Source: an uncultured Clostridia bacterium (GTDB lineage Bacteria > Bacillota > Clostridia > Christensenellales > UBA1750). Taken from it: 64,000 nt of DNA. Every line of letters starts with the position of its first letter. Positions within the stretch are counted from its first letter, which is position 1. Location: positions 29,138-93,137 of the forward strand of contig CANQPP010000003.1 in the NCBI GenBank assembly GCA_947625765.1, read 5' to 3'. The position numbers and the translations under genes are program-made. Below, in pieces: positions 17,570 through 53,785 of this stretch. The notes beneath the pieces are model-generated. The model saw nothing but the letters and a program-made list of their open reading frames with translations. It was not told the DNA's origin and did no database searches.

Positions 17570-17697
17570 CCCCCGCCCCACCTATCCTCCGGCCCCGGGC
17601 CTCGACCCCGGGGCCGTTCTCTATTTCTCTCCCCCCGCAACGCACTTTCCTGAAGGTCCCCCCCCGAGCGGCAACACTATGCGAGCCCTCCCGCATC

Positions 17698-19072
17698 AAC
17701 GCAGCGAGCAAGCGGGTAGGCGTTTGAAAAACGCCCCGCAAGCGAGCAGGATTCGCGACGAACGCCCCACTTTCCCTCATATCCGCCTTTTCCCAAAAAT
17801 ACCAACCTTTTGACAAAATCCGACATAACACAACCACGTAGCGAGCGAGCTGGCGTTTGCAAAAACGCCCCGCAAGCGAGCGGGATATACCGCGTCGCCT
17901 CTCTTTCCCCTCCTGTTCGTTCCCATTCTCTCAAGAACCGCGCTAACATCATGCCAAACCCCCGAGCCAACGCAGCGAGTGAGCGGCTGGCGTTTGCAAA
18001 ACGCCCCGCAAGCGAGTGGGATTCACAACAGCCGCTCCGTTTTTCCCCAAAAATGCCATATTTTCGACATATTCCGATATTGTGCAACCGCGTAGTGAGC
18101 TATTGGCGTGTTGAAACACGCCACAAGCGAACGGAACTTGCGCTGATCATTCCCCTTTTCCCTCCTGCCCCTTCCCGCCCCACAAAGAACCGCGCCGAAC
18201 TTCTACCAAACCTCAACGCCAACGCAGCGAGCAAGCGGGTAGGCGTTTGAAAAACGCCCCGCAAGCGAGCGGGATTCATGGCTAACCTCCGCTTTCCCTC
18301 ATATCCGACTTCCCCAAAAATGCCGAACTTTTGACAAAATCCGACATTGCGCAGTCACGTAGTGAGCGAGTGGTGCGTTTATAAACGCGCCACAAGCGAA
18401 TGGGATTTACAGCGTCCCTTTTTTCTCCTACCCGTTCCCCTCCTCCCAAGAACCGCGCCAAGACTCTACTCCCCCTCCTGCAACGCAGTGAGCAAGCGGG
18501 CAGGCGTTTTGAAAAAACGCCCCGCAAGCGAGCGGGATTTCAGATGAAAGCCCCCGTTTTCCCCATATCCGTCTTTTTCCAAAAACGCCGAGTTTTCGAC
18601 ATAATCCGATATTGCGCAACCGCGCAGTGAGCGAGTGGCGTGTTTCCAAACGCGCCACAAGTGAACGGGGCTTACGACGAATGCCTCGCTTTCCCTCATA
18701 TCTGTCCTTCCCTAAAAACACCAATCTTTTGACAAAATCCGACATCGCGCAGCCGTGTAGTGAGCGGGTAGGCGTTTGAAAAACGCCCCGCAAGCGAGCG
18801 GGATTCACGACGCCCCCCACTTTCCCTCATATCCGTCTTTCCCCAAAAACACCGGCCTTTTGACAAAATCCGACATTGCGCAGCCGCGTAGTGAGCGAGT
18901 GGCGCGTTTACAAACGCGCCACAAGCGAACGGAACTTACAGCGGCGCCTCTCTTTTTCTTCCTGCCTGTTCCCATTCTCCCACGAACTGCGCTGAGATCA
19001 TGCCGAACCTCCGCACCAACGCAGCGAGCAAGCGGGCAGGCGTTTGAAAAACGCCCCGCAAGCGAGCGGGAC
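17698..19072. repeat. Non-coding tandem hairpin array, 11 cores at ~130-bp period with two linker types (REP/BIME-like)
   Basis: GGCGTTT-loop-AAACGCC type hairpins at 17719, 17852, 17989, 18105, 18242, 18372, 18503, 18637, 18771, 18901 and 19039, each followed by a CAAGCGA-like tail. Confidence 0.92.
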
Positions 19073-19144
19073 TAGCAAAGGAGCCAAACAGGAGGAAAAG
19101 CCTCCGCTCATTTTTCAGCGGCAGCTCGTTTCCCCGACGACGAG

Positions 19145-19663: not shown

Positions 19664-21981
19664 TTACAGGAGCAGCGACGTTTCCGGCAGGCCTTCCGTG
19701 CGGACGGTCAGGAGCGGGTGGCTCGACTCGCGGCGCAGCACGGCCAGGGCGCGACCCCGCCAGAGCGCGCAGTCGGCGGCGGCGTAGCTGTCCGTTGTGC
19801 AGGGGTCCGCGGAGCCCAGTCCCAGCAGGCGGCAGCCCTGCGTGGAGACGAACACGCGCCTTTCTCCGGGACAGAGCACGCCCTTCTCGTCGCGCAGCTC
19901 GATGTGCACATAGCGCAGCTTGGTGCCGGGCATGTTCTTGTCCTCCGCCCGCAGGACAAGGCGCGCGGGCGTGCCCGCGGTCCGAAGTGTGCAGCGGCCC
20001 AGTTCCCTGCCCTGTTCGTCCAGGGAGACCGCCTCCAGGACGCCGGGGGCATAGCTGACCGTAAAGGCGGCGCGGTGCTCCCGCACAGGCTGCTCGTCCA
20101 GCGTTTCTCCGTTTAAGACAAGGCGCACGACGCCCTCCCTTGCGTACACGGTCACAGCGGCGGGCTTTCCCTCGAAGCCGGGATAGTTCCAGCACTCCAG
20201 CAGATCCGGCCAGCCCCAGCGGGTCGTATACTCCTTCTGGCCGAAGCGGGACGGGTGCTGCACGCCCAGGAAGGGCCGGGTGCGGTCCGTCCAGAGGAAG
20301 TCGCGGTAATGGGACTGGGGCGCTTGCGGCCGGTCAGGTCCAGGTCGCCGCAGTAGGCCAGCCGCCAGGGATAGCCGCAGGGGCTCTCCTCGCTGCCGTA
20401 CCAGCTGCGGCCGATGCCCGCCTCGCCGATGTAGTCCCAAGCGGTCCAGACGAAGTCGCCGATCAGGTAGGGATGTTTCTCGACCGCGCGCCAGTTCTCC
20501 GCGGCCTCCATGGGGAAGGACTCAGTGCCCACGAACACGCGGGACGGGAACAGGCCGTGGTCCTTCTCGTAGCGGTCCAGCAGGTAGTTGTAGCCGCAGA
20601 CGTCCAGCGGGGCCAGGTAGTCCTCGGACTTCATCGCCCAGTAGTCCTTGCCCTCGCCCTCCTCCAGCGTGGACATGGTGTTGAGCGCCATCTCCTGCAG
20701 CTCGGTCTCCTCGAAGAAGCCGCAGATGGCGTTGGTCACGGGGCGGGTCCTGTCCAGCGAGCGGACCTTCTCCGCCAGCCGGGCAGACCACGCGGCCCCG
20801 TCGGACATGCCACTGCGCTCCTGCACCTCGTTGCCCGTGGACCAGAGGATCACGCAGGCGTGGCGGCGGTCGCGGCGGACCATGGCCTCCAGCTGCTGCT
20901 CCCAGGTCTCCTCGAAGTAGAGGTGCTCGTCCGCGGCGCGCTTGCCCTCGCGCCAGGCGTCGAAGGCCTCGTCCACCACGTACAGCCCCAGGGCGTCGCA
21001 GGCGCGCAGGAAGCTGGCCGAGTGCGGGTCGTGGGCGCAGCGCACGGCGTTGAAGCCGTTCTCCTTCATCAGCCGGGCCTTGCGGTATTCTGCGCCGCGA
21101 TGGCTGGCCGTGCCCAGAAGGCCATTGTCGTGGTGGATGCAGCCGCCCTTGAGCTTGACCGGCTGCCCGTTGATGAGCAGGCCCTGCTCGGCGTTCACGG
21201 CCACGGTGCGCACGCCGCAGGGGACCTCCTCGGTATCCAGGACCTCGCCCTTCGGCCCCAAAACCTCGGCGCGCAGGCGGTAGAGGTGCGGGTCTTCCGC
21301 GCTCCAGAGGCGGCAGGGGGAAAGCTGCGCCTCCGCGCAGGCCTGACCGTCTTGGGCTTCGGCTTCCATATCCAGCAGCGTCTCGTCCCCGTCTATCAGA
21401 GAAAAGCGGACGCGGCCGGCCTCGGGAGAGACCTCTGCGTTCAGCCGCAGGGAGGCGCCTTCCTCCGTCAGGGAGATCGTGTCCAGCCAGAGCCCGTCGG
21501 GCAGTATGTAGGCAGGCGCGGCGGCGGAGAGCAGCTCCACGCCCCTGTACACGCCCGCGCCCGGGTACCAGCGGGAGGCGGGCAGGGGCCCTGCGTTCAC
21601 GCGCAGCTGCACGGTGTTCTCGCCCTCGTGCAGCCTTCCCGTGAGCCAGACCACAAAGGGAGAATAGCCGCTCTTGTGCAGCGTCAACAGCTGGTTGTTG
21701 ACCCGCACCTCACACAGGCGGTAAACGCCGTCGAAGTACAGGCAGCAGGGGGACGCCGCGGCCTGCGCATCCACATGGAAGCGCTTCTCGTAATAGCCCA
21801 TGCCGTCGGGATAGAACGCCTCGTTGGTCCCACCGGGCGAGGCCGGGTCGGGCTCCAAGGCGATGCGGAAATCGTGGGGCAGGTCCACGGGGCGGCCCTG
21901 CCCGCGGACGGCGCGGCGGACCCAGTCCTCGTGCCGGGCATATTCAAACAGCCAGTTCGCGTTGAAATCCTGGTGGCGCAT
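19664..21981 (-). pseudogene. GH2 glycoside hydrolase with a one-base frameshift near 20317-20320 (pseudogene or sequencing error)
   Basis: RWYPGAGVYR, KGGCIHHDNG, WSTGNE, GDFVWTAWDYIGE in one frame; after GDLDLTGRKRP the expected QSHYRDFLW continues in another frame. Confidence 0.85.
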
Positions 21982-22243
21982 AAAGAATGACCTCCTTGCA
22001 GTCGAGACCGGGCCGCGCCCGGCGCTACCCGTATGATACCGCAGAACAGGGCGGCCCGTCAATTGAAGGGGAAACAAAAACCCGCCCAGGCATCGGAAAA
22101 ACGCCGGAGCGGGTGGGGGTTCAGGCACGCTTATGCAAGGGAACACCCTTGTACAGAAGCGCATCCTTTGTTCATTGAGTCAATCGACACCAAAACCTTC
22201 TGTTAATGCTTCCAGTTTACCCTTTGGAGATACATGCTCAAAA

Positions 22244-22423
22244 TTAGCCCTCTCTCCAATAGTTGCATCCATTCCTGTCGCTCGGACGGTTATATCCACC
22301 ATATCCGCCATCGCAATAAACTCTGCCATTAGAATCAGTGTTGTTCCAATCTGCGTACCGACAATCACGACAATTCCCATAGAACGTGCCCTCTGGTAGC
22401 CTGATTTCAACCATGCAAGACAT
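22244..22423 (-). CDS. Small Cys-rich protein (~59 aa), CxxCxY...C...CxxW
   Basis: GAGGTG RBS before ATG at 22423; CRDCRY...VYC...GCNYW; last gene of the AT-rich operon. Confidence 0.7.
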   Translation of the reverse strand: MSCMVEIRLPEGTFYGNCRDCRYADWNNTDSNGRVYCDGGYGGYNRPSDRNGCNYWREG

Positions 22424-22438
22424 TATTTTCACCTCTTT

Positions 22439-22864
22439 TCATACGACATTTAGTGTGTCGCTCTTTATTTTTATTGCATCCCCATTCTGCATTGCCAAAT
22501 AAGATACGATCTTTTTCTCAGGCAGCACAACAATAGGGAAATACAATTTACCAATACTCGACGGCATCGCTTGCATAATTGTTGTAATGTAAGCGATGTC
22601 TCCATCCGATAAAGTATCCACCCCCCAAAAGTGCGTATGAAAAATGCCCTGGAATGTGATTCCTTTCTGTTGCCATTTTTCAATAATCCCGTTCAAAAAA
22701 GTAACATTTGGCGTATAAAAACAGCCCTTATGCACAGAACGACTTTTATCAAACACACACTCGCAAATTGTATTGTCAACACTGCCCAAAATTCCCCCAG
22801 TTTCAGGAGGTGCAGAAGGTACAGTATTTAAAATATAATCACGAGTATTTCTCAAAATATTCAT
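22439..22864 (-). CDS. JAB/MPN (JAMM) metalloprotease domain protein
   Basis: ETGGILG plus exact JAMM motif H-x-H-x7-S-x2-D (HTHFWGVDTLSDGD). Confidence 0.88.
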   Translation of the reverse strand: MNILRNTRDYILNTVPSAPPETGGILGSVDNTICECVFDKSRSVHKGCFYTPNVTFLNGIIEKWQQKGITFQGIFHTHFWGVDTLSDGDIAYITTIMQAMPSSIGKLYFPIVVLPEKKIVSYLAMQNGDAIKIKSDTLNVV

Positions 22865-22877
22865 TGCATTGTCCGTC

Positions 22878-23147
22878 TTAATTCTTCCAAAAATTCACAG
22901 CAAAAGTCCAAATTTTCACAATGGCCAAGAAGAAAAGGCGCATAAGCTCTATTACTCCGAGGAAAAACGCTGAAACTATAATTAAGGTATACCGTAGCCA
23001 GCGCTTTTGAGGTGTTTGCAGTGATATATGGAACTTGTTTTCAAGATAGGCTACGAAGTTTTTTCCCGCTTTGATCCCATATATAAGGAATGAATAGATG
23101 TATGCTGCTATCAATAGAATTAATAGAACTATGTCAAATGTACTCAT
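22878..23147 (-). CDS. Small two-TM membrane protein
   Basis: GAGGT RBS, ATG at 23147; two hydrophobic stretches. Confidence 0.7.
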   Translation of the reverse strand: MSTFDIVLLILLIAAYIYSFLIYGIKAGKNFVAYLENKFHISLQTPQKRWLRYTLIIVSAFFLGVIELMRLFFLAIVKIWTFAVNFWKN

Positions 23148-23197
23148 CGATGTAAACCTCACATTTCTTTTTTTCGTTCAAGCCTGCATTTTATCCG

Positions 23198-23422
23198 TTA
23201 ATAACGCCATTCACCAGAATGATCCATATATTGCTCCCCCGGTTTGCGCCATCCACCGGCTTCGTCAACATACTCGTCATTCGGGCCTCTCCATGCTCCA
23301 GTAATATCGACATAGTCGTCATCTGGAGTCCTCCACCCGCCCGCAGAATCTACATAATCCTCATCAGGCATGCGCCACGCGCCTGAAGCGTCCATGTACT
23401 GTTGCTTTTTCCATCTTGGCAT
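23198..23422 (-). CDS. 74-aa protein of five 14-aa repeats (Y-[MV]-D-x-x-G-x-W-R-x-P)
   Basis: AGGAGG RBS; YMDASGAWRMP / YVDSAGGWRTP / YVDITGAWRGP / YVDEAGGWRKP / YMDHSGEWRY. Confidence 0.85.
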   Translation of the reverse strand: MPRWKKQQYMDASGAWRMPDEDYVDSAGGWRTPDDDYVDITGAWRGPNDEYVDEAGGWRKPGEQYMDHSGEWRY

Positions 23423-23437
23423 TATGCATGTTCCTCC

Positions 23438-23824
23438 TTACTTTGTCTTGTTTTGGTCAACAACTAATTCTGCCAATCGGGAAATCAAGACTTCCATTCC
23501 TCCATCCTTAAAATTGTCACAGATATATCCCATCGTAGAAAACCATGGTCCAAACCTTACATCGTTTCTTTTGCAGACATACGTCCTCCCTGCCTCCCCT
23601 TGAAAACTCTCACAGTAAGTACAAGTATGGCAAGAATCTGGACCAGCTTGAGATCGGAACCCTGCAATCAGCAAGGCCCTATCCCCATCCCGAACAAATT
23701 TTGTACATACATCTGACCCTCTAACTTCACAACGCCGCAGTGTACAAACAAATCTTCTTCTGCCAAAGAATTTTCTTTTTGAAATATAGTACTTACATAA
23801 TCTACACTTTTTCTCAATAGTCAT
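23438..23824 (-). CDS. Protein with two tandem Cys4 motifs
   Basis: AGGAG RBS; CRLCKY...FVC...VCTKF and CHTCTY...YVC...ICDNF. Confidence 0.75.
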   Translation of the reverse strand: MTIEKKCRLCKYYISKRKFFGRRRFVCTLRRCEVRGSDVCTKFVRDGDRALLIAGFRSQAGPDSCHTCTYCESFQGEAGRTYVCKRNDVRFGPWFSTMGYICDNFKDGGMEVLISRLAELVVDQNKTK

Positions 23825-23851
23825 ATCGTCTTCTCCTCTTGCTCGGCTTTC

Positions 23852-24039
23852 TTTGACATATAAGTGTACTTTTTTGTAAGATAACTACGTAGGCTCAATT
23901 CCCTACTAATAAGCAAAAAAATAAGTATAACACTAGAAAAAGTATTGCAATTATCCTCTATCTATGCAATAATATAGAGGTCACAACGTGTATGGCGTTT
24001 GTGTGAGGCTCTTACAAAAAAGTACACTTTTCTGTAAGA
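23852..24039. promoter_or_regulatory. Promoter region flanked by a perfect 20-bp inverted repeat (candidate invertible switch or operator pair)
   Basis: AAGTGTACTTTTTTGTAAGA (23862-23881) is the exact reverse complement of TCTTACAAAAAAGTACACTT (24010-24029). Confidence 0.65.
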
Positions 24040-24085
24040 CTTTCCAAGAAAGCGCCGCATCGCAAAAAATTCCTTTCATAAAGCC

Positions 24086-24131
24086 AAAAGCATGGCCTGT
24101 CCCTCGTAAGTCAGACAGGCCATGCTTTTTT
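24086..24131. terminator. Bidirectional terminator
   Basis: AAAAGCATGGCCTGTC / GACAGGCCATGCTTTT. Confidence 0.8.
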
Positions 24132-24148
24132 GCATGTTTTTGTCAGTT

Positions 24149-25318
24149 TCAGCCCCAGCGCTGCCCGAGGGCCTGCAGGAGGGCCTCCAGCGTGGTATCG
24201 TCGGGCGGACCTCCTATGCAGGTGAGGGAGGCGGCGAATCTTCCCTTGACGGCCACGGCTTCCATGCCGTTTTTGGCCAGATACACTCGATCCAGGCCGG
24301 GAACGGCCGCCGTGCTCCAGCCATCGCCGCCCGCTTGTCCCGCCAGTGCCTTCCCCTGCAGGGCGCGCGCGATGTCCTCGCCGGAGCCAAAGCGCAGGGC
24401 ATAAACGCGCTCAAAGAGGGCGTAGCCCGCGCCGCCGTCGGTGCGCAGGGGCTGATACAGGTCGTACGTCTCGGCGAGCAGGGAGGCGGAGCGCTCGATC
24501 TTCCCCTCCCTGTCCGGCAGGAACACGGGCACGCGCTCGCCCGCAAGGCCCGCTTCCTCCAGCAGGACGTAAGGCCCGTCGGCTTCTTTGGGCAGGGGCG
24601 ACGTCCGGCCCGTACCGACCTGGGCAAGGCAGAGCGCAAGGCTTAAAACACAGAGCAGCAGGAGCGCGCCGGCCGTGATTTTGTGCGCCTTTTGCCCGCG
24701 GCCGCTGCGGTCGATGGGCAGCCCCTTGGACAGCCGACGCCGAAGCAGGGCTAAACTTACGGCGGCGTGGATGGAAAAATACAGGTTCGCCGCCAGGAAG
24801 CAGAGGAAGAACAGCATAAGGCCCGTGGATGTGACGAAGCTCATGCGCCACTCGTCCGCAAAGTTCATGAGGGCGGCCGAAAAGCTGTCCGACGCGGCGG
24901 CGGTGAGCAGCAGGTACAGCGCGACCAGCAGGGGCACCTGCAGGAGCGTCAGCCAGGCGTTCGTCCGCAGGGCGCGCAGCGTTTCCGCCTGCTGGGCCGG
25001 GTCGCTGTACAGCTCCTGCACGGGCGCATCCGCCGGGGCGCGGAACACGTGGATAAGCCCGCGGCCGGTCACGTACTCCCAGCCGCAGTCCTCATAGAGC
25101 GCCACCTGTTCCTCCGGCAGGCCCGTCTCTTCCCCAAGCCCTGCGCGCGGGGCCAGCTCCACGCGGTACAGCGCCTTTACGGGCTCTCCTTTGCGGAAGC
25201 GGCTCAAAAACGCGCCCCGCTTTTCCAGCAGCCAGCCCTTCTCCGCCATGCGGGTGTAAAAACGCTCCGTTTCGCCTATGGCGTGGTCGCCGGGCTGCGG
25301 CAGATAGCACCGCTTCAT
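24149..25318 (-). CDS. DUF2812 family membrane protein
   Basis: MAEKGWLL...YEDCGWEYV N-terminal signature; directly downstream of PadR. Confidence 0.8.
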   Translation of the reverse strand: MKRCYLPQPGDHAIGETERFYTRMAEKGWLLEKRGAFLSRFRKGEPVKALYRVELAPRAGLGEETGLPEEQVALYEDCGWEYVTGRGLIHVFRAPADAPVQELYSDPAQQAETLRALRTNAWLTLLQVPLLVALYLLLTAAASDSFSAALMNFADEWRMSFVTSTGLMLFFLCFLAANLYFSIHAAVSLALLRRRLSKGLPIDRSGRGQKAHKITAGALLLLCVLSLALCLAQVGTGRTSPLPKEADGPYVLLEEAGLAGERVPVFLPDREGKIERSASLLAETYDLYQPLRTDGGAGYALFERVYALRFGSGEDIARALQGKALAGQAGGDGWSTAAVPGLDRVYLAKNGMEAVAVKGRFAASLTCIGGPPDDTTLEALLQALGQRWG

Positions 25319-52756: not shown

Positions 52757-53785
52757 TTACCTCTGGACGCGGCCGGAGGCGTTGCCCTTCATCAGGTTCT
52801 TGACCTCGTCCAGGGAGACCATGTTGTAGTCGCCCTCGATGGTGTGCTTGAGCGCGGAGGCCGCGGCCGCGAACTCCACGGCGCCCTGGTTGTCGTAGCC
52901 GTTGCGCAGGGCGTAGATGAGGCCGGAGCCGAAGCTGTCGCCGCCGCCCACGCGGTCCACGATGTGGATGGCGTACTTCTTGGAGACGGAGATCTCGCCG
53001 GTCTCCGCGTCGTAGAGCATGCCGGACCAGTTGTTGTCGGAGGCGGAGATGCTCTCGCGCAGGGTGATGGCGATCTTCTTGCAGCCGAAGCGGTCCACCA
53101 GCTGCTTAGCCACGGACTTATAGCCCTCAACGCTCAGCTTGCCGCTGTTGATGTCGGTGGCGTCGGCATGGATGCCGAACACGTCCGCGGAGTCCTCCTC
53201 GTTGGCGATCAGCACGTCCACGTAGGGCACCAGCTCGCTCATCACCTGGCCGGCCTTCTCGCGGGACCAGAGGTTCTTGCGGTAGTTGAGGTCGCAGGAG
53301 ATGGTGATGCCGCGGGCCTTGGCGGCCTTGCAGGCCTCCAGCGTCACGGCCGCAGCGCCGTCGGAGATAGCGGGGGTGATGCCGGTCCAGTGCAGCCAGG
53401 TGGCGTCGGCCAGGATCTTGTCCCAGTCGAAATCGCCGGGCTTCACGGCGGACATGGCGGAATACTTGCGGTCATAGACCACCTTGGAGGGACGCATGGA
53501 CGCGCCCTTCTCGCAGTAGTAGATGCCCAGGCGCTCGCCCTGGCGGGGAGACATGGAGGTGTCCACGCCGAACCAGCGCAGGGAGTTGAGGCACGCATCG
53601 CCTATGGGATTCTTGGGGATGGCGCAGACGAAGGCCGCATCCTCGCCGTAGTTGGCCAGGGAAACGGAGACGTTCGCCTCCGCGCCGCCGAACACCACGT
53701 CGAAGGTGTGGGTCTGGTGCAGACGATAGTAGCCCGGAGGGGACAGGCGAAGCATGACCTCGCCGAAGCATACGACCTTACCCAT
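52757..53785 (-). CDS. kdgK: 2-keto-3-deoxygluconate kinase (PfkB family)
   Basis: FGEVMLRL, GGAEANV, DLNYRKNLW, DRVGGGDSF, LKHTIEGD, GRVQR. Confidence 0.88.
   Translation of the reverse strand: MGKVVCFGEVMLRLSPPGYYRLHQTHTFDVVFGGAEANVSVSLANYGEDAAFVCAIPKNPIGDACLNSLRWFGVDTSMSPRQGERLGIYYCEKGASMRPSKVVYDRKYSAMSAVKPGDFDWDKILADATWLHWTGITPAISDGAAAVTLEACKAAKARGITISCDLNYRKNLWSREKAGQVMSELVPYVDVLIANEEDSADVFGIHADATDINSGKLSVEGYKSVAKQLVDRFGCKKIAITLRESISASDNNWSGMLYDAETGEISVSKKYAIHIVDRVGGGDSFGSGLIYALRNGYDNQGAVEFAAAASALKHTIEGDYNMVSLDEVKNLMKGNASGRVQR

Follow-up and report, generated by a model that had tools for sequence, protein, structure and literature searches.

A probable trans-flipped, possibly locked inverton at a foreign five-gene JAB island in an uncultured Clostridia bacterium

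Two short dyad-symmetric sequences in opposite orientation lie directly upstream of a small operon encoding a JAB metalloprotease in an uncultured Clostridia bacterium, and they raise the question of whether the DNA between them is a promoter that can be turned around and, if so, by which enzyme. The stretch of 64,000 nucleotides that was analysed is referred to here as the window. A sequence-only reading of it had taken the paired sequences for tyrosine recombinase sites bounding an invertible promoter, possibly flipped in trans, with the operators of a dimeric repressor as the alternative. Our analysis makes it somewhat more likely than not that the locus is an inverton flipped in trans and possibly locked, and that it forms a switch at a foreign five-gene JAB island.

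The site pair and the island that it precedes

The features of the pair are as follows.
23852..23881, no strand assigned: candidate proximal recombination site, TTTGACATATAA-GTGTAC-TTTTTTGTAAGA, with a degenerate outer arm.
23882..24009, no strand assigned: inter-site segment of 128 bp, the candidate invertible promoter cassette.
24010..24039, no strand assigned: candidate distal recombination site, TCTTACAAAAAA-GTACAC-TTTTCTGTAAGA, a near-perfect 14-2-14 dyad with GT at its centre on the operon strand.

A perfect 20-nt inverted repeat (23862-23881 and 24010-24029, which are 52999-53018 and 53147-53166 of contig C3) encloses 128 bp, exactly as had been described, and it sits within two 30-nt dyads whose centres are 158 bp apart, a distance that ranges from 105 to 164 bp in related units. 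The inverted arms can be followed over 26 nt (23856-23881 and 24010-24035, 92% complementary, 128 nt between them). The right site consists of arms of 14 nt each (24010-24023 and 24026-24039, 93%) around 2 nt at the centre; the dyad of the left site is weaker, its outer arm agreeing at 8 of 12 positions, and degenerate proximal outer arms are also seen in the related loci L004, L006 and L077. The inner half and core of the proximal site are those of the distal site in inverted order. Two dyads with 12-nt arms around an asymmetric 6-bp core had been proposed, and of this description the dyads hold but the 6-bp asymmetry does not, as GTGTAC is asymmetric in its central 2 nt only. The two sites thus face in opposite directions and have one asymmetric central dinucleotide in common (GT and AC in GTGTAC and GTACAC), and each offers the half-site dyad that a recombinase dimer would occupy, with distal arms agreeing at 93% and with scores of 37-47 bits for the two sites against the site matrix introduced below. 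Judged from its sequence, this 14-2-14 geometry is that of serine recombinase sites of the hix type, rather than that of tyrosine recombinase sites.

Perfect inverted repeats of at least 16 nt at a spacing of 30-500 nt number 13 in the 2.54-Mb genome, and those of at least 20 nt number 7. A scan for further TCTTACA-N16-TGTAAGA sites had also been suggested; with the spacer relaxed to N14-18 the pattern occurs once genome-wide, and its reversed control not at all. Because both long perfect inverted repeats and this pattern are so rare in the genome, the inverted repeat of the window exceeds chance.

The pair is located at the right-hand border of an island with low GC content (36-48% across the 400-nt windows between 22400 and 24000, versus 62% for the genome), which carries five small genes on the minus strand.
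23438..23824, minus strand: 128-aa Cys-rich protein, first gene of the island, of no Pfam family.
23198..23422, minus strand: 74-aa protein of GAWRxPDxxYVD-like repeats, with homologues in 6 of 29 JAB loci.
22878..23162, minus strand: 94-aa hydrophobic (membrane) protein, with homologues in L004 and L005.
22439..22864, minus strand: 141-aa JAB/JAMM metalloprotease (PADLOC JAB, 6.9e-5; Prok-JAB clusters, score 0.97).
22244..22432, minus strand: 62-aa Cys-rich protein, a conserved partner just downstream of JAB, compared with L004:2737-2934 and L006:4423-4620.

Residues E21, H76, H78, S86 and D89 of the JAB protein, the JAMM motif, are invariant among 27 sequences. The 128-aa protein has homologues in L004 and L005 (42-48% identity); a collection of 5.8 billion proteins returned only the protein itself, and the Atlas search gave no confident relative (score 0.87). 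In most JAB loci small ORFs follow the JAB gene, apparently including a Cys-rich protein of about 60-65 aa in most of the 15 that were examined, and the genes upstream of JAB vary, with Sel1 repeats, a zinc ribbon plus YARHG, DUF4234, a tubulin-like protein and a protein kinase among them (L004-L032).

The island is flanked on the left by a GH2 gene and on the right by a bidirectional hairpin, beyond which lies the DUF2812/PadR operon of the host; there is no regulator gene within the island, and the proximal site falls between the promoters described below and the ribosome-binding site. Searches of 60 relatives and of phage and plasmid records returned no match to the island DNA. In the same-genus genomes G001 and G002 the GH2 orthologue adjoins other DNA and the DUF2812/PadR pair is not syntenic, and since this comparison gives no empty insertion site, the exact ends of the island are undefined. 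Three further observations concern its surroundings. The GH2 glycosidase gene (19664-22164) is split over two frames (20152-22164 and 19664-20440) by a frameshift or an assembly error. Positions 17690-19100 hold an intergenic array of at least six diverged units that recur about every 131-133 or 265 nt and have GC-rich hairpin-like cores, and similar repeats adjoin the GH2 orthologue in G002. The contig from run X1 differs from the window at a single position (23825) over 22008-24334 and at 27 positions over the next 466 nt (24335-24800), which suggests a recent exchange of the island, together with about 290 nt of right flank, between diverged strains.

Serine recombinases linked to homologous sites

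A scan of reference genomes for the JAB protein, with an alignment of 11 sequences as the query, returned 29 loci, two of which (L004 and L006) carry dyads like those of the window upstream of the operon. In both, an ORF with a Resolvase domain (Pfam, 3.5e-31) ends about 10-25 nt before the distal dyad; the distal core reads GTGTAC, and 137-138 bp further along, immediately ahead of the first gene, is a weaker dyad with GTACAC as its core. This arrangement is the layout of the window with a recombinase added. A further locus, L005, has the same genes as the island and neither the sites nor the recombinase.

In the window's own genome an intact recombinase ORF is found at C29 (G000:C29:14570-15166), 81% identical to the enzyme of L004, with a Pfam Resolvase match of 3e-27, a conserved catalytic motif (YGYVRVS) and a C-terminal helix-turn-helix that is almost identical to that of the enzymes linked to the most similar sites. 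Downstream of it, within G000:C29:15179-15345, lie GTTTACAAGAAC-GTGTAC-TTTTTCGCAAAC and, 137 bp on, TCTTGCAGAAAA-GTACAC-CTTTTGGCAAAC, and beyond this pair is the gene for a 685-aa secreted repeat protein. All six sites of L004, L006 and C29, which were found via their proteins, keep GTGTAC or GTACAC while their arms vary; this is the opposite of conserved arms around a variable core, the pattern that had been named as favouring operators.

With a site matrix built from 22 sites of 11 other loci, window and C29 left out, the four best matches in the genome are the distal (47.2 bits) and proximal (37.4 bits) sites of the window and the two C29 sites (34.2 and 30.4 bits). The fifth-best match scores 16.3 bits, and nothing above this value lies elsewhere in the genome, the DNA ahead of the PadR gene included. 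The genome thus encodes a cognate serine recombinase, although not adjacent to the window copy: contig C3 has no recombinase gene, tyrosine recombinases included, and a search for recombinase remnants gave nothing better than E = 0.2 anywhere in the window. Two other small serine recombinases of the genome differ from it, that on C50 being 55% identical with a different helix and that on C67 frameshifted. An intact cognate enzyme on C29 and none at the window fit the earlier suggestion of a distant recombinase acting in trans. As to enzyme class, the 14-2-14 dyads and the linked Pfam Resolvase enzyme point away from the tyrosine recombinase that had been proposed and towards a serine recombinase.

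Among relatives of known structure the recombinase matches Sin / Bin3 at 3.5e-30, gamma-delta resolvase at 9e-20 and Gin at 1e-16, and by these comparisons it is nearer to the Sin / Bin3 / gamma-delta resolvases than to the Gin invertase. Taken together, we regard it as very probable that the window sites are targets of this family of resolvase-type serine recombinases of about 200 aa. We also considered a res site of a Tn3/Sin-type resolvase. Such a site is a cluster of subsites lying ahead of its resolvase gene, with crossover at just one of them; here the sites are downstream of the gene, 105-164 bp apart, with the same core inverted, and this candidate was rejected.

The association between enzyme and site extends to metagenomes. 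A query of 18 nt, made up of the core and the inner half-site, recovered 107 metagenome loci, of which 43 have dyad arms (at least 7 of 12 positions), 63 have none and 1 at a contig edge was not scored; the flanks were searched with the serine recombinase as the query. Where dyad arms are present, a partner site in inverted orientation lies at a distance of 105-164 bp in 26 of the 43 loci, and a recombinase homologue (60-84% identical) is found in 28, versus 1 and 2, respectively, of the 63 loci without them. In 27 of these 28 loci the aligned 3' end of the recombinase is 22-74 nt from the nearer core. For each of the paralogous recombinases of L044, L038 and L041 the equivalent position is occupied by an inverted site pair of its own, different in sequence and located ahead of a lipoprotein or secreted-protein gene; distinct paralogues have distinct site pairs, and therefore enzyme and site vary together. 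Eight matches to the 18-mer in viral contigs include none with dyad arms or a recombinase, and when one related switch locus was compared with 401 genomes at the order level, only the 3' ends of recombinases matched, in 2 genomes.

The orphan pair of the window is not unique, since those of L065, L116, L074 and L075 are also without a recombinase within 2.5 kb. L065 and L116 share 97% identity as far as the outer edge of one site and 70% past that point, which hints that the site is a recombination boundary. In these two loci (positions 2490-2660) the orphan pair lies between two divergent paralogous genes, one of them in L116 glycosyltransferase-like by eye, and a single flipping promoter could choose between the two. 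The window's genome itself holds a third, more distant orphan pair (G000:C2:79385-79535), a 16-nt perfect inverted repeat with the core TATAC and 110 nt between its arms, which contains an extended -10 promoter and adjoins a lipoprotein gene on a contig with no recombinase. In L044 (G000:C67:7698-11136) the paralogous recombinase is apparently frameshifted after about residue 123 and the site pair encloses TTGAAG-17-TATAAT facing the lipoprotein gene, so that this locus may be a switch locked ON.

Promoters, orientation and the search for inversion

Promoter calls are matches to a sigma-70-like consensus, with positions scored by a simple function of our own. The signals in and beside the segment are as follows.
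23924..23950, minus strand: second, weaker promoter-like site, with the same TTGCAA, a 15-nt spacer and TGT-TATACT (extended -10), facing the operon.
23945..23973, plus strand: promoter-like TTGCAA-17-AATAAT with TG, matching the consensus at 9 of 12 positions, facing the distal site and the terminator, away from the operon.
24086..24129, no strand assigned: bidirectional hairpin terminator with perfect 16-nt arms, which ends the host DUF2812/PadR operon.

Both elements that the sequence-only reading had placed between the sites are indeed there, namely a rightward TTGCAA-17-AATAAT (23945-23973) that runs to a terminator at 24086 and a leftward extended -10 (TGTTATACT at 23932-23924, preceded at 15 nt by the same TTGCAA). 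A scan of 23700-24250 found four promoter-like sites versus 0.8 expected from shuffles, and one of them, TTGCAA-17-AATAAT, is within the segment. Our function scores the rightward promoter at 12 versus 10 for the leftward one, which resembles the TTGCAA-17-TGC-TATACT of L006; both use one palindromic TTGCAA as the -35 hexamer. The hairpin at 24086-24129 would halt the transcript of the rightward promoter.

Across the family the position of the promoter follows a pattern that lends inversion indirect support. Of 14 units oriented by the recombinase, 10 (the window included) have the best promoter directed towards the recombinase side, and the -10 of this promoter ends 34-36 nt from the distal core in 7 units and 45-48 nt in 3 (48 nt in the window, 45-46 nt in the other two). 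In L084 and L131 the best promoter faces the cargo instead, 37 and 47 nt from the proximal core, the mirror image that flipping of the cassette would produce, and neither pattern holds for L113 and L064. By the promoter rule of the family the sequenced orientation would be OFF, since the family-pattern promoter points from the operon into the terminator, but this reading is uncertain, given the second promoter and the possibility of read-through from the DUF2812 operon. The effect of flipping is likewise uncertain, because the promoter-like sites in both directions share one -35 hexamer.

Inversion itself was sought in assemblies. The window locus has the same orientation in all three in which it is represented (the MAG, X1 contig 23241-24800 and X2 contig 21800-24795), and no inversion joints were found in the contigs of four rabbit-gut runs, contigs being a form of data from which minority forms are dropped. 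Runs X3 and X6 leave 23909-24140 and 23893-24029 uncovered, and these gaps are uninformative because the depth is only 2-4 with gaps elsewhere too. For related switches, three sets of contigs of the same locus from different samples (14, 7 and 3) contain no flipped copy among 24. Since contigs drop minority forms, the uniformity at the window locus is compatible with flipping. Alignments of the inter-site segments of 13 units gave contradictory relative orientations, the window and L006 slightly favouring the opposite one (15 versus 13). Of the invertible promoter that had been proposed, then, the layout is borne out, being shared with recombinase-linked pairs in L004, L006, C29 and at least 28 metagenome contigs, whereas inversion was not observed in 3 of 3 assemblies and 24 of 24 contigs. 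One observation concerns the state of the sites: eight of 14 human-gut contigs of one related locus (L052, L071, L114, L119, L125, L140, L152 and L154) have a 1-2-nt insertion in the proximal core (GTTACAC), which should block exchange.

Competing explanations and relation to known systems

In the mechanism that we favour, the two dyads would be crossover sites of the small (about 200 aa) resolvase-type serine recombinases of gut Clostridia. A recombinase dimer would bind each site on two half-sites of 12-14 nt (consensus TTTTACAAAAAAGT), with cleavage and exchange at the central dinucleotide, GT at one site and AC at the other, and because these dinucleotides are opposed, recombination would invert the 128-bp segment. 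As the segment holds the only promoters ahead of the low-GC JAB island, flipping would swap which promoter faces the operon. The window copy would have lost, or never had, its own recombinase gene, and the enzyme on C29, the sole match in the genome in the DNA-binding domain, would act in trans. From the sequence relationships we infer that this enzyme would cut at the window sites, that the segment would invert and that flipping would continue here. We consider it likely that the module is an inverton, and put the chance that the orphan window copy still flips through the C29 enzyme at about even.

A closely related explanation keeps the sites as genuine and inherited and supposes that, lacking a recombinase in cis, they no longer invert, leaving a fixed promoter arrangement that expresses or silences the island. 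The absence of a recombinase beside the window sites, unlike in L004 and L006, the single orientation in three of three assemblies and the decay seen in the family (the core insertion in 8 of 14 contigs of a related locus and the frameshifted C67 enzyme) all agree with it. Such a relic would nevertheless have kept 20 nt of inner half-site and core identical between two sites that both outscore those of the C29 enzyme itself; moreover, that enzyme is intact and shares its DNA-binding helix with the enzymes that accompany near-identical sites, and orphan pairs occur elsewhere too (L065, L116, L074 and L075). We regard a locked relic as unlikely, though it is the most credible of the three rivals considered here.

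Repression without recombination is a less probable account still, and one to which we give little credence: a dimeric protein, either the helix-turn-helix of a recombinase or another repressor, would loop the 158 bp and repress the promoter without cutting. The sole gene that travels with the sites encodes a recombinase with a complete catalytic domain, and the conserved central dinucleotide is both asymmetric and, from one site to the other, always inverted, a feature that exchange needs and binding does not. Site spacings do cluster near whole helical turns (105, 116, 137 and 158 bp), as looping needs, the proximal site separates the promoters from the ribosome-binding site, and no inversion was seen; yet the island has no regulator gene and no site precedes the neighbouring PadR gene. 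The form in which this idea had been raised, as operators of a dimeric repressor encoded outside the window, is weakened further, as no regulator co-occurs with the sites and the genome has no sites besides the C29 pair. Least probable of all, to the point that we would be surprised to see it upheld, is an inverton with 12-nt arms and a 6-bp overlap flipped by one of the eight tyrosine recombinases that the genome does encode. Dyad symmetry enters the supposed core, leaving just 2 nt asymmetric where an overlap of 6-8 bp would be expected, and the enzyme linked in homologous loci is a serine recombinase. Two other inverted repeats of 24 nt adjoin tyrosine recombinase genes in this genome, on C20 and C15, but they are unrelated in sequence to the sites of the window. 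These repeats (G000:C20:8050-8390 and G000:C15:40521-40812) are perfect, about 245-295 nt apart and at most 100 nt from the recombinase genes, and are probably tyrosine-type invertons in their own right.

The favoured reading, an inverton flipped in trans and possibly locked, can be extended to a portable module, a tentative proposal that we hold to be possible but rather doubtful. A cassette of about 190 bp, made of two hix-like sites and a promoter at a fixed distance of 35 or 46 nt from the site that it faces, would have arrived on the low-GC island without an enzyme and would be flipped by the resident C29 recombinase, so that incoming genes plug into a phase-variation circuit of the host. 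Its cargo, which comprises a JAB protease and four very small proteins of Cys-rich, repeat and membrane types, would represent a conflict or stress module not yet described and OFF in most cells. If the switch works, only a fraction of the population would express a horizontally acquired operon, and an enzyme encoded at another place in the genome would govern it. A working switch would also define a site motif, TTACAAAAAAGT-GT-ACTTTTTTGTAA, for annotating switches in MAGs of gut Clostridia; this type of element is already known, and the value of the locus lies in annotation and in a pointer to the JAB island, with no new mechanism.

The hix sites of Hin have a 12-2-12 half-site layout in which the inner half-site is shared between the inverted sites. 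The sites described here are similar to those of Hin/hix, Gin/gix, Cin and Pin in that each comprises two half-sites flanking a 2-bp core at which exchange occurs, and the two inverted copies have this core and the inner half-site in common. In published descriptions of these invertases (PMC4513852, PMC11868660), hix sites are given as 26 bp with exchange at the core base pairs (PMC4513852). An A-tract beside the recognition block and a GRP arm before the helix-turn-helix domain are further likenesses to the Hin/Gin family. Unlike in that family, the segments are 105-164 bp rather than 1-4 kb, the enzyme matches Sin / Bin3 (3.5e-30) better in sequence than Gin (1e-16), and the recombinase gene is outside the segment and reads towards it. 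We know of no enhancer or Fis in these bacteria. RecV of Clostridioides difficile is a tyrosine recombinase, and the geometry of its sites differs from that in the window. It is nonetheless a Firmicute example of a recombinase that acts at a distance, one enzyme being described as inverting several short segments, promoters or leaders, that are remote from the gene encoding it (PMC7446863). Invertons of Firmicutes_A (Clostridia-like) bacteria are reported to include new repeat motifs (PMC11892184), and the site motif of the window may already be among them; a text search of the literature for the site strings gave nothing on recombination among the matches listed.

One of the closest parallels is that of the hin-like switches of Flavonifractor plautii, where, according to the published account, locus comparisons reveal inversions of about 120 bp in the promoter region immediately downstream of hin-like genes, which precede most csrA-tldR loci of such bacteria (PMC13418256). 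Both systems consist of a small serine recombinase gene followed by a promoter-bearing segment of about 120 bp, in the F. plautii case inverted between related loci, and both belong to gut Clostridia of the same broad group, the related locus L006 being from Candidatus Faecousia. They differ in that the F. plautii promoter is described as FliA-dependent and drives flagellar regulators, whereas the window has sigma-70-type sites and JAB cargo, and in that the recombinase of the window is not adjacent; the likeness is drawn from the published description rather than from site or enzyme sequences. For action in trans a parallel is Mpi of Bacteroides fragilis, a serine recombinase for which the flipping of 7-13 promoters is established (PMC10403206). 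As proposed for the window, a single serine recombinase there acts in trans on several short segments at other places in the genome, each carrying a promoter between inverted repeats, and many of these promoters are OFF at rest (PMC10403206). The phylum, site sequence and recombinase subfamily differ, the case made here is one of sequence comparison, and the 7-13 loci attributed to Mpi compare with only two matching loci in the present genome. If it works, the pair formed by the window and C29 would be a small Firmicute counterpart of the Bacteroides Mpi regulon.
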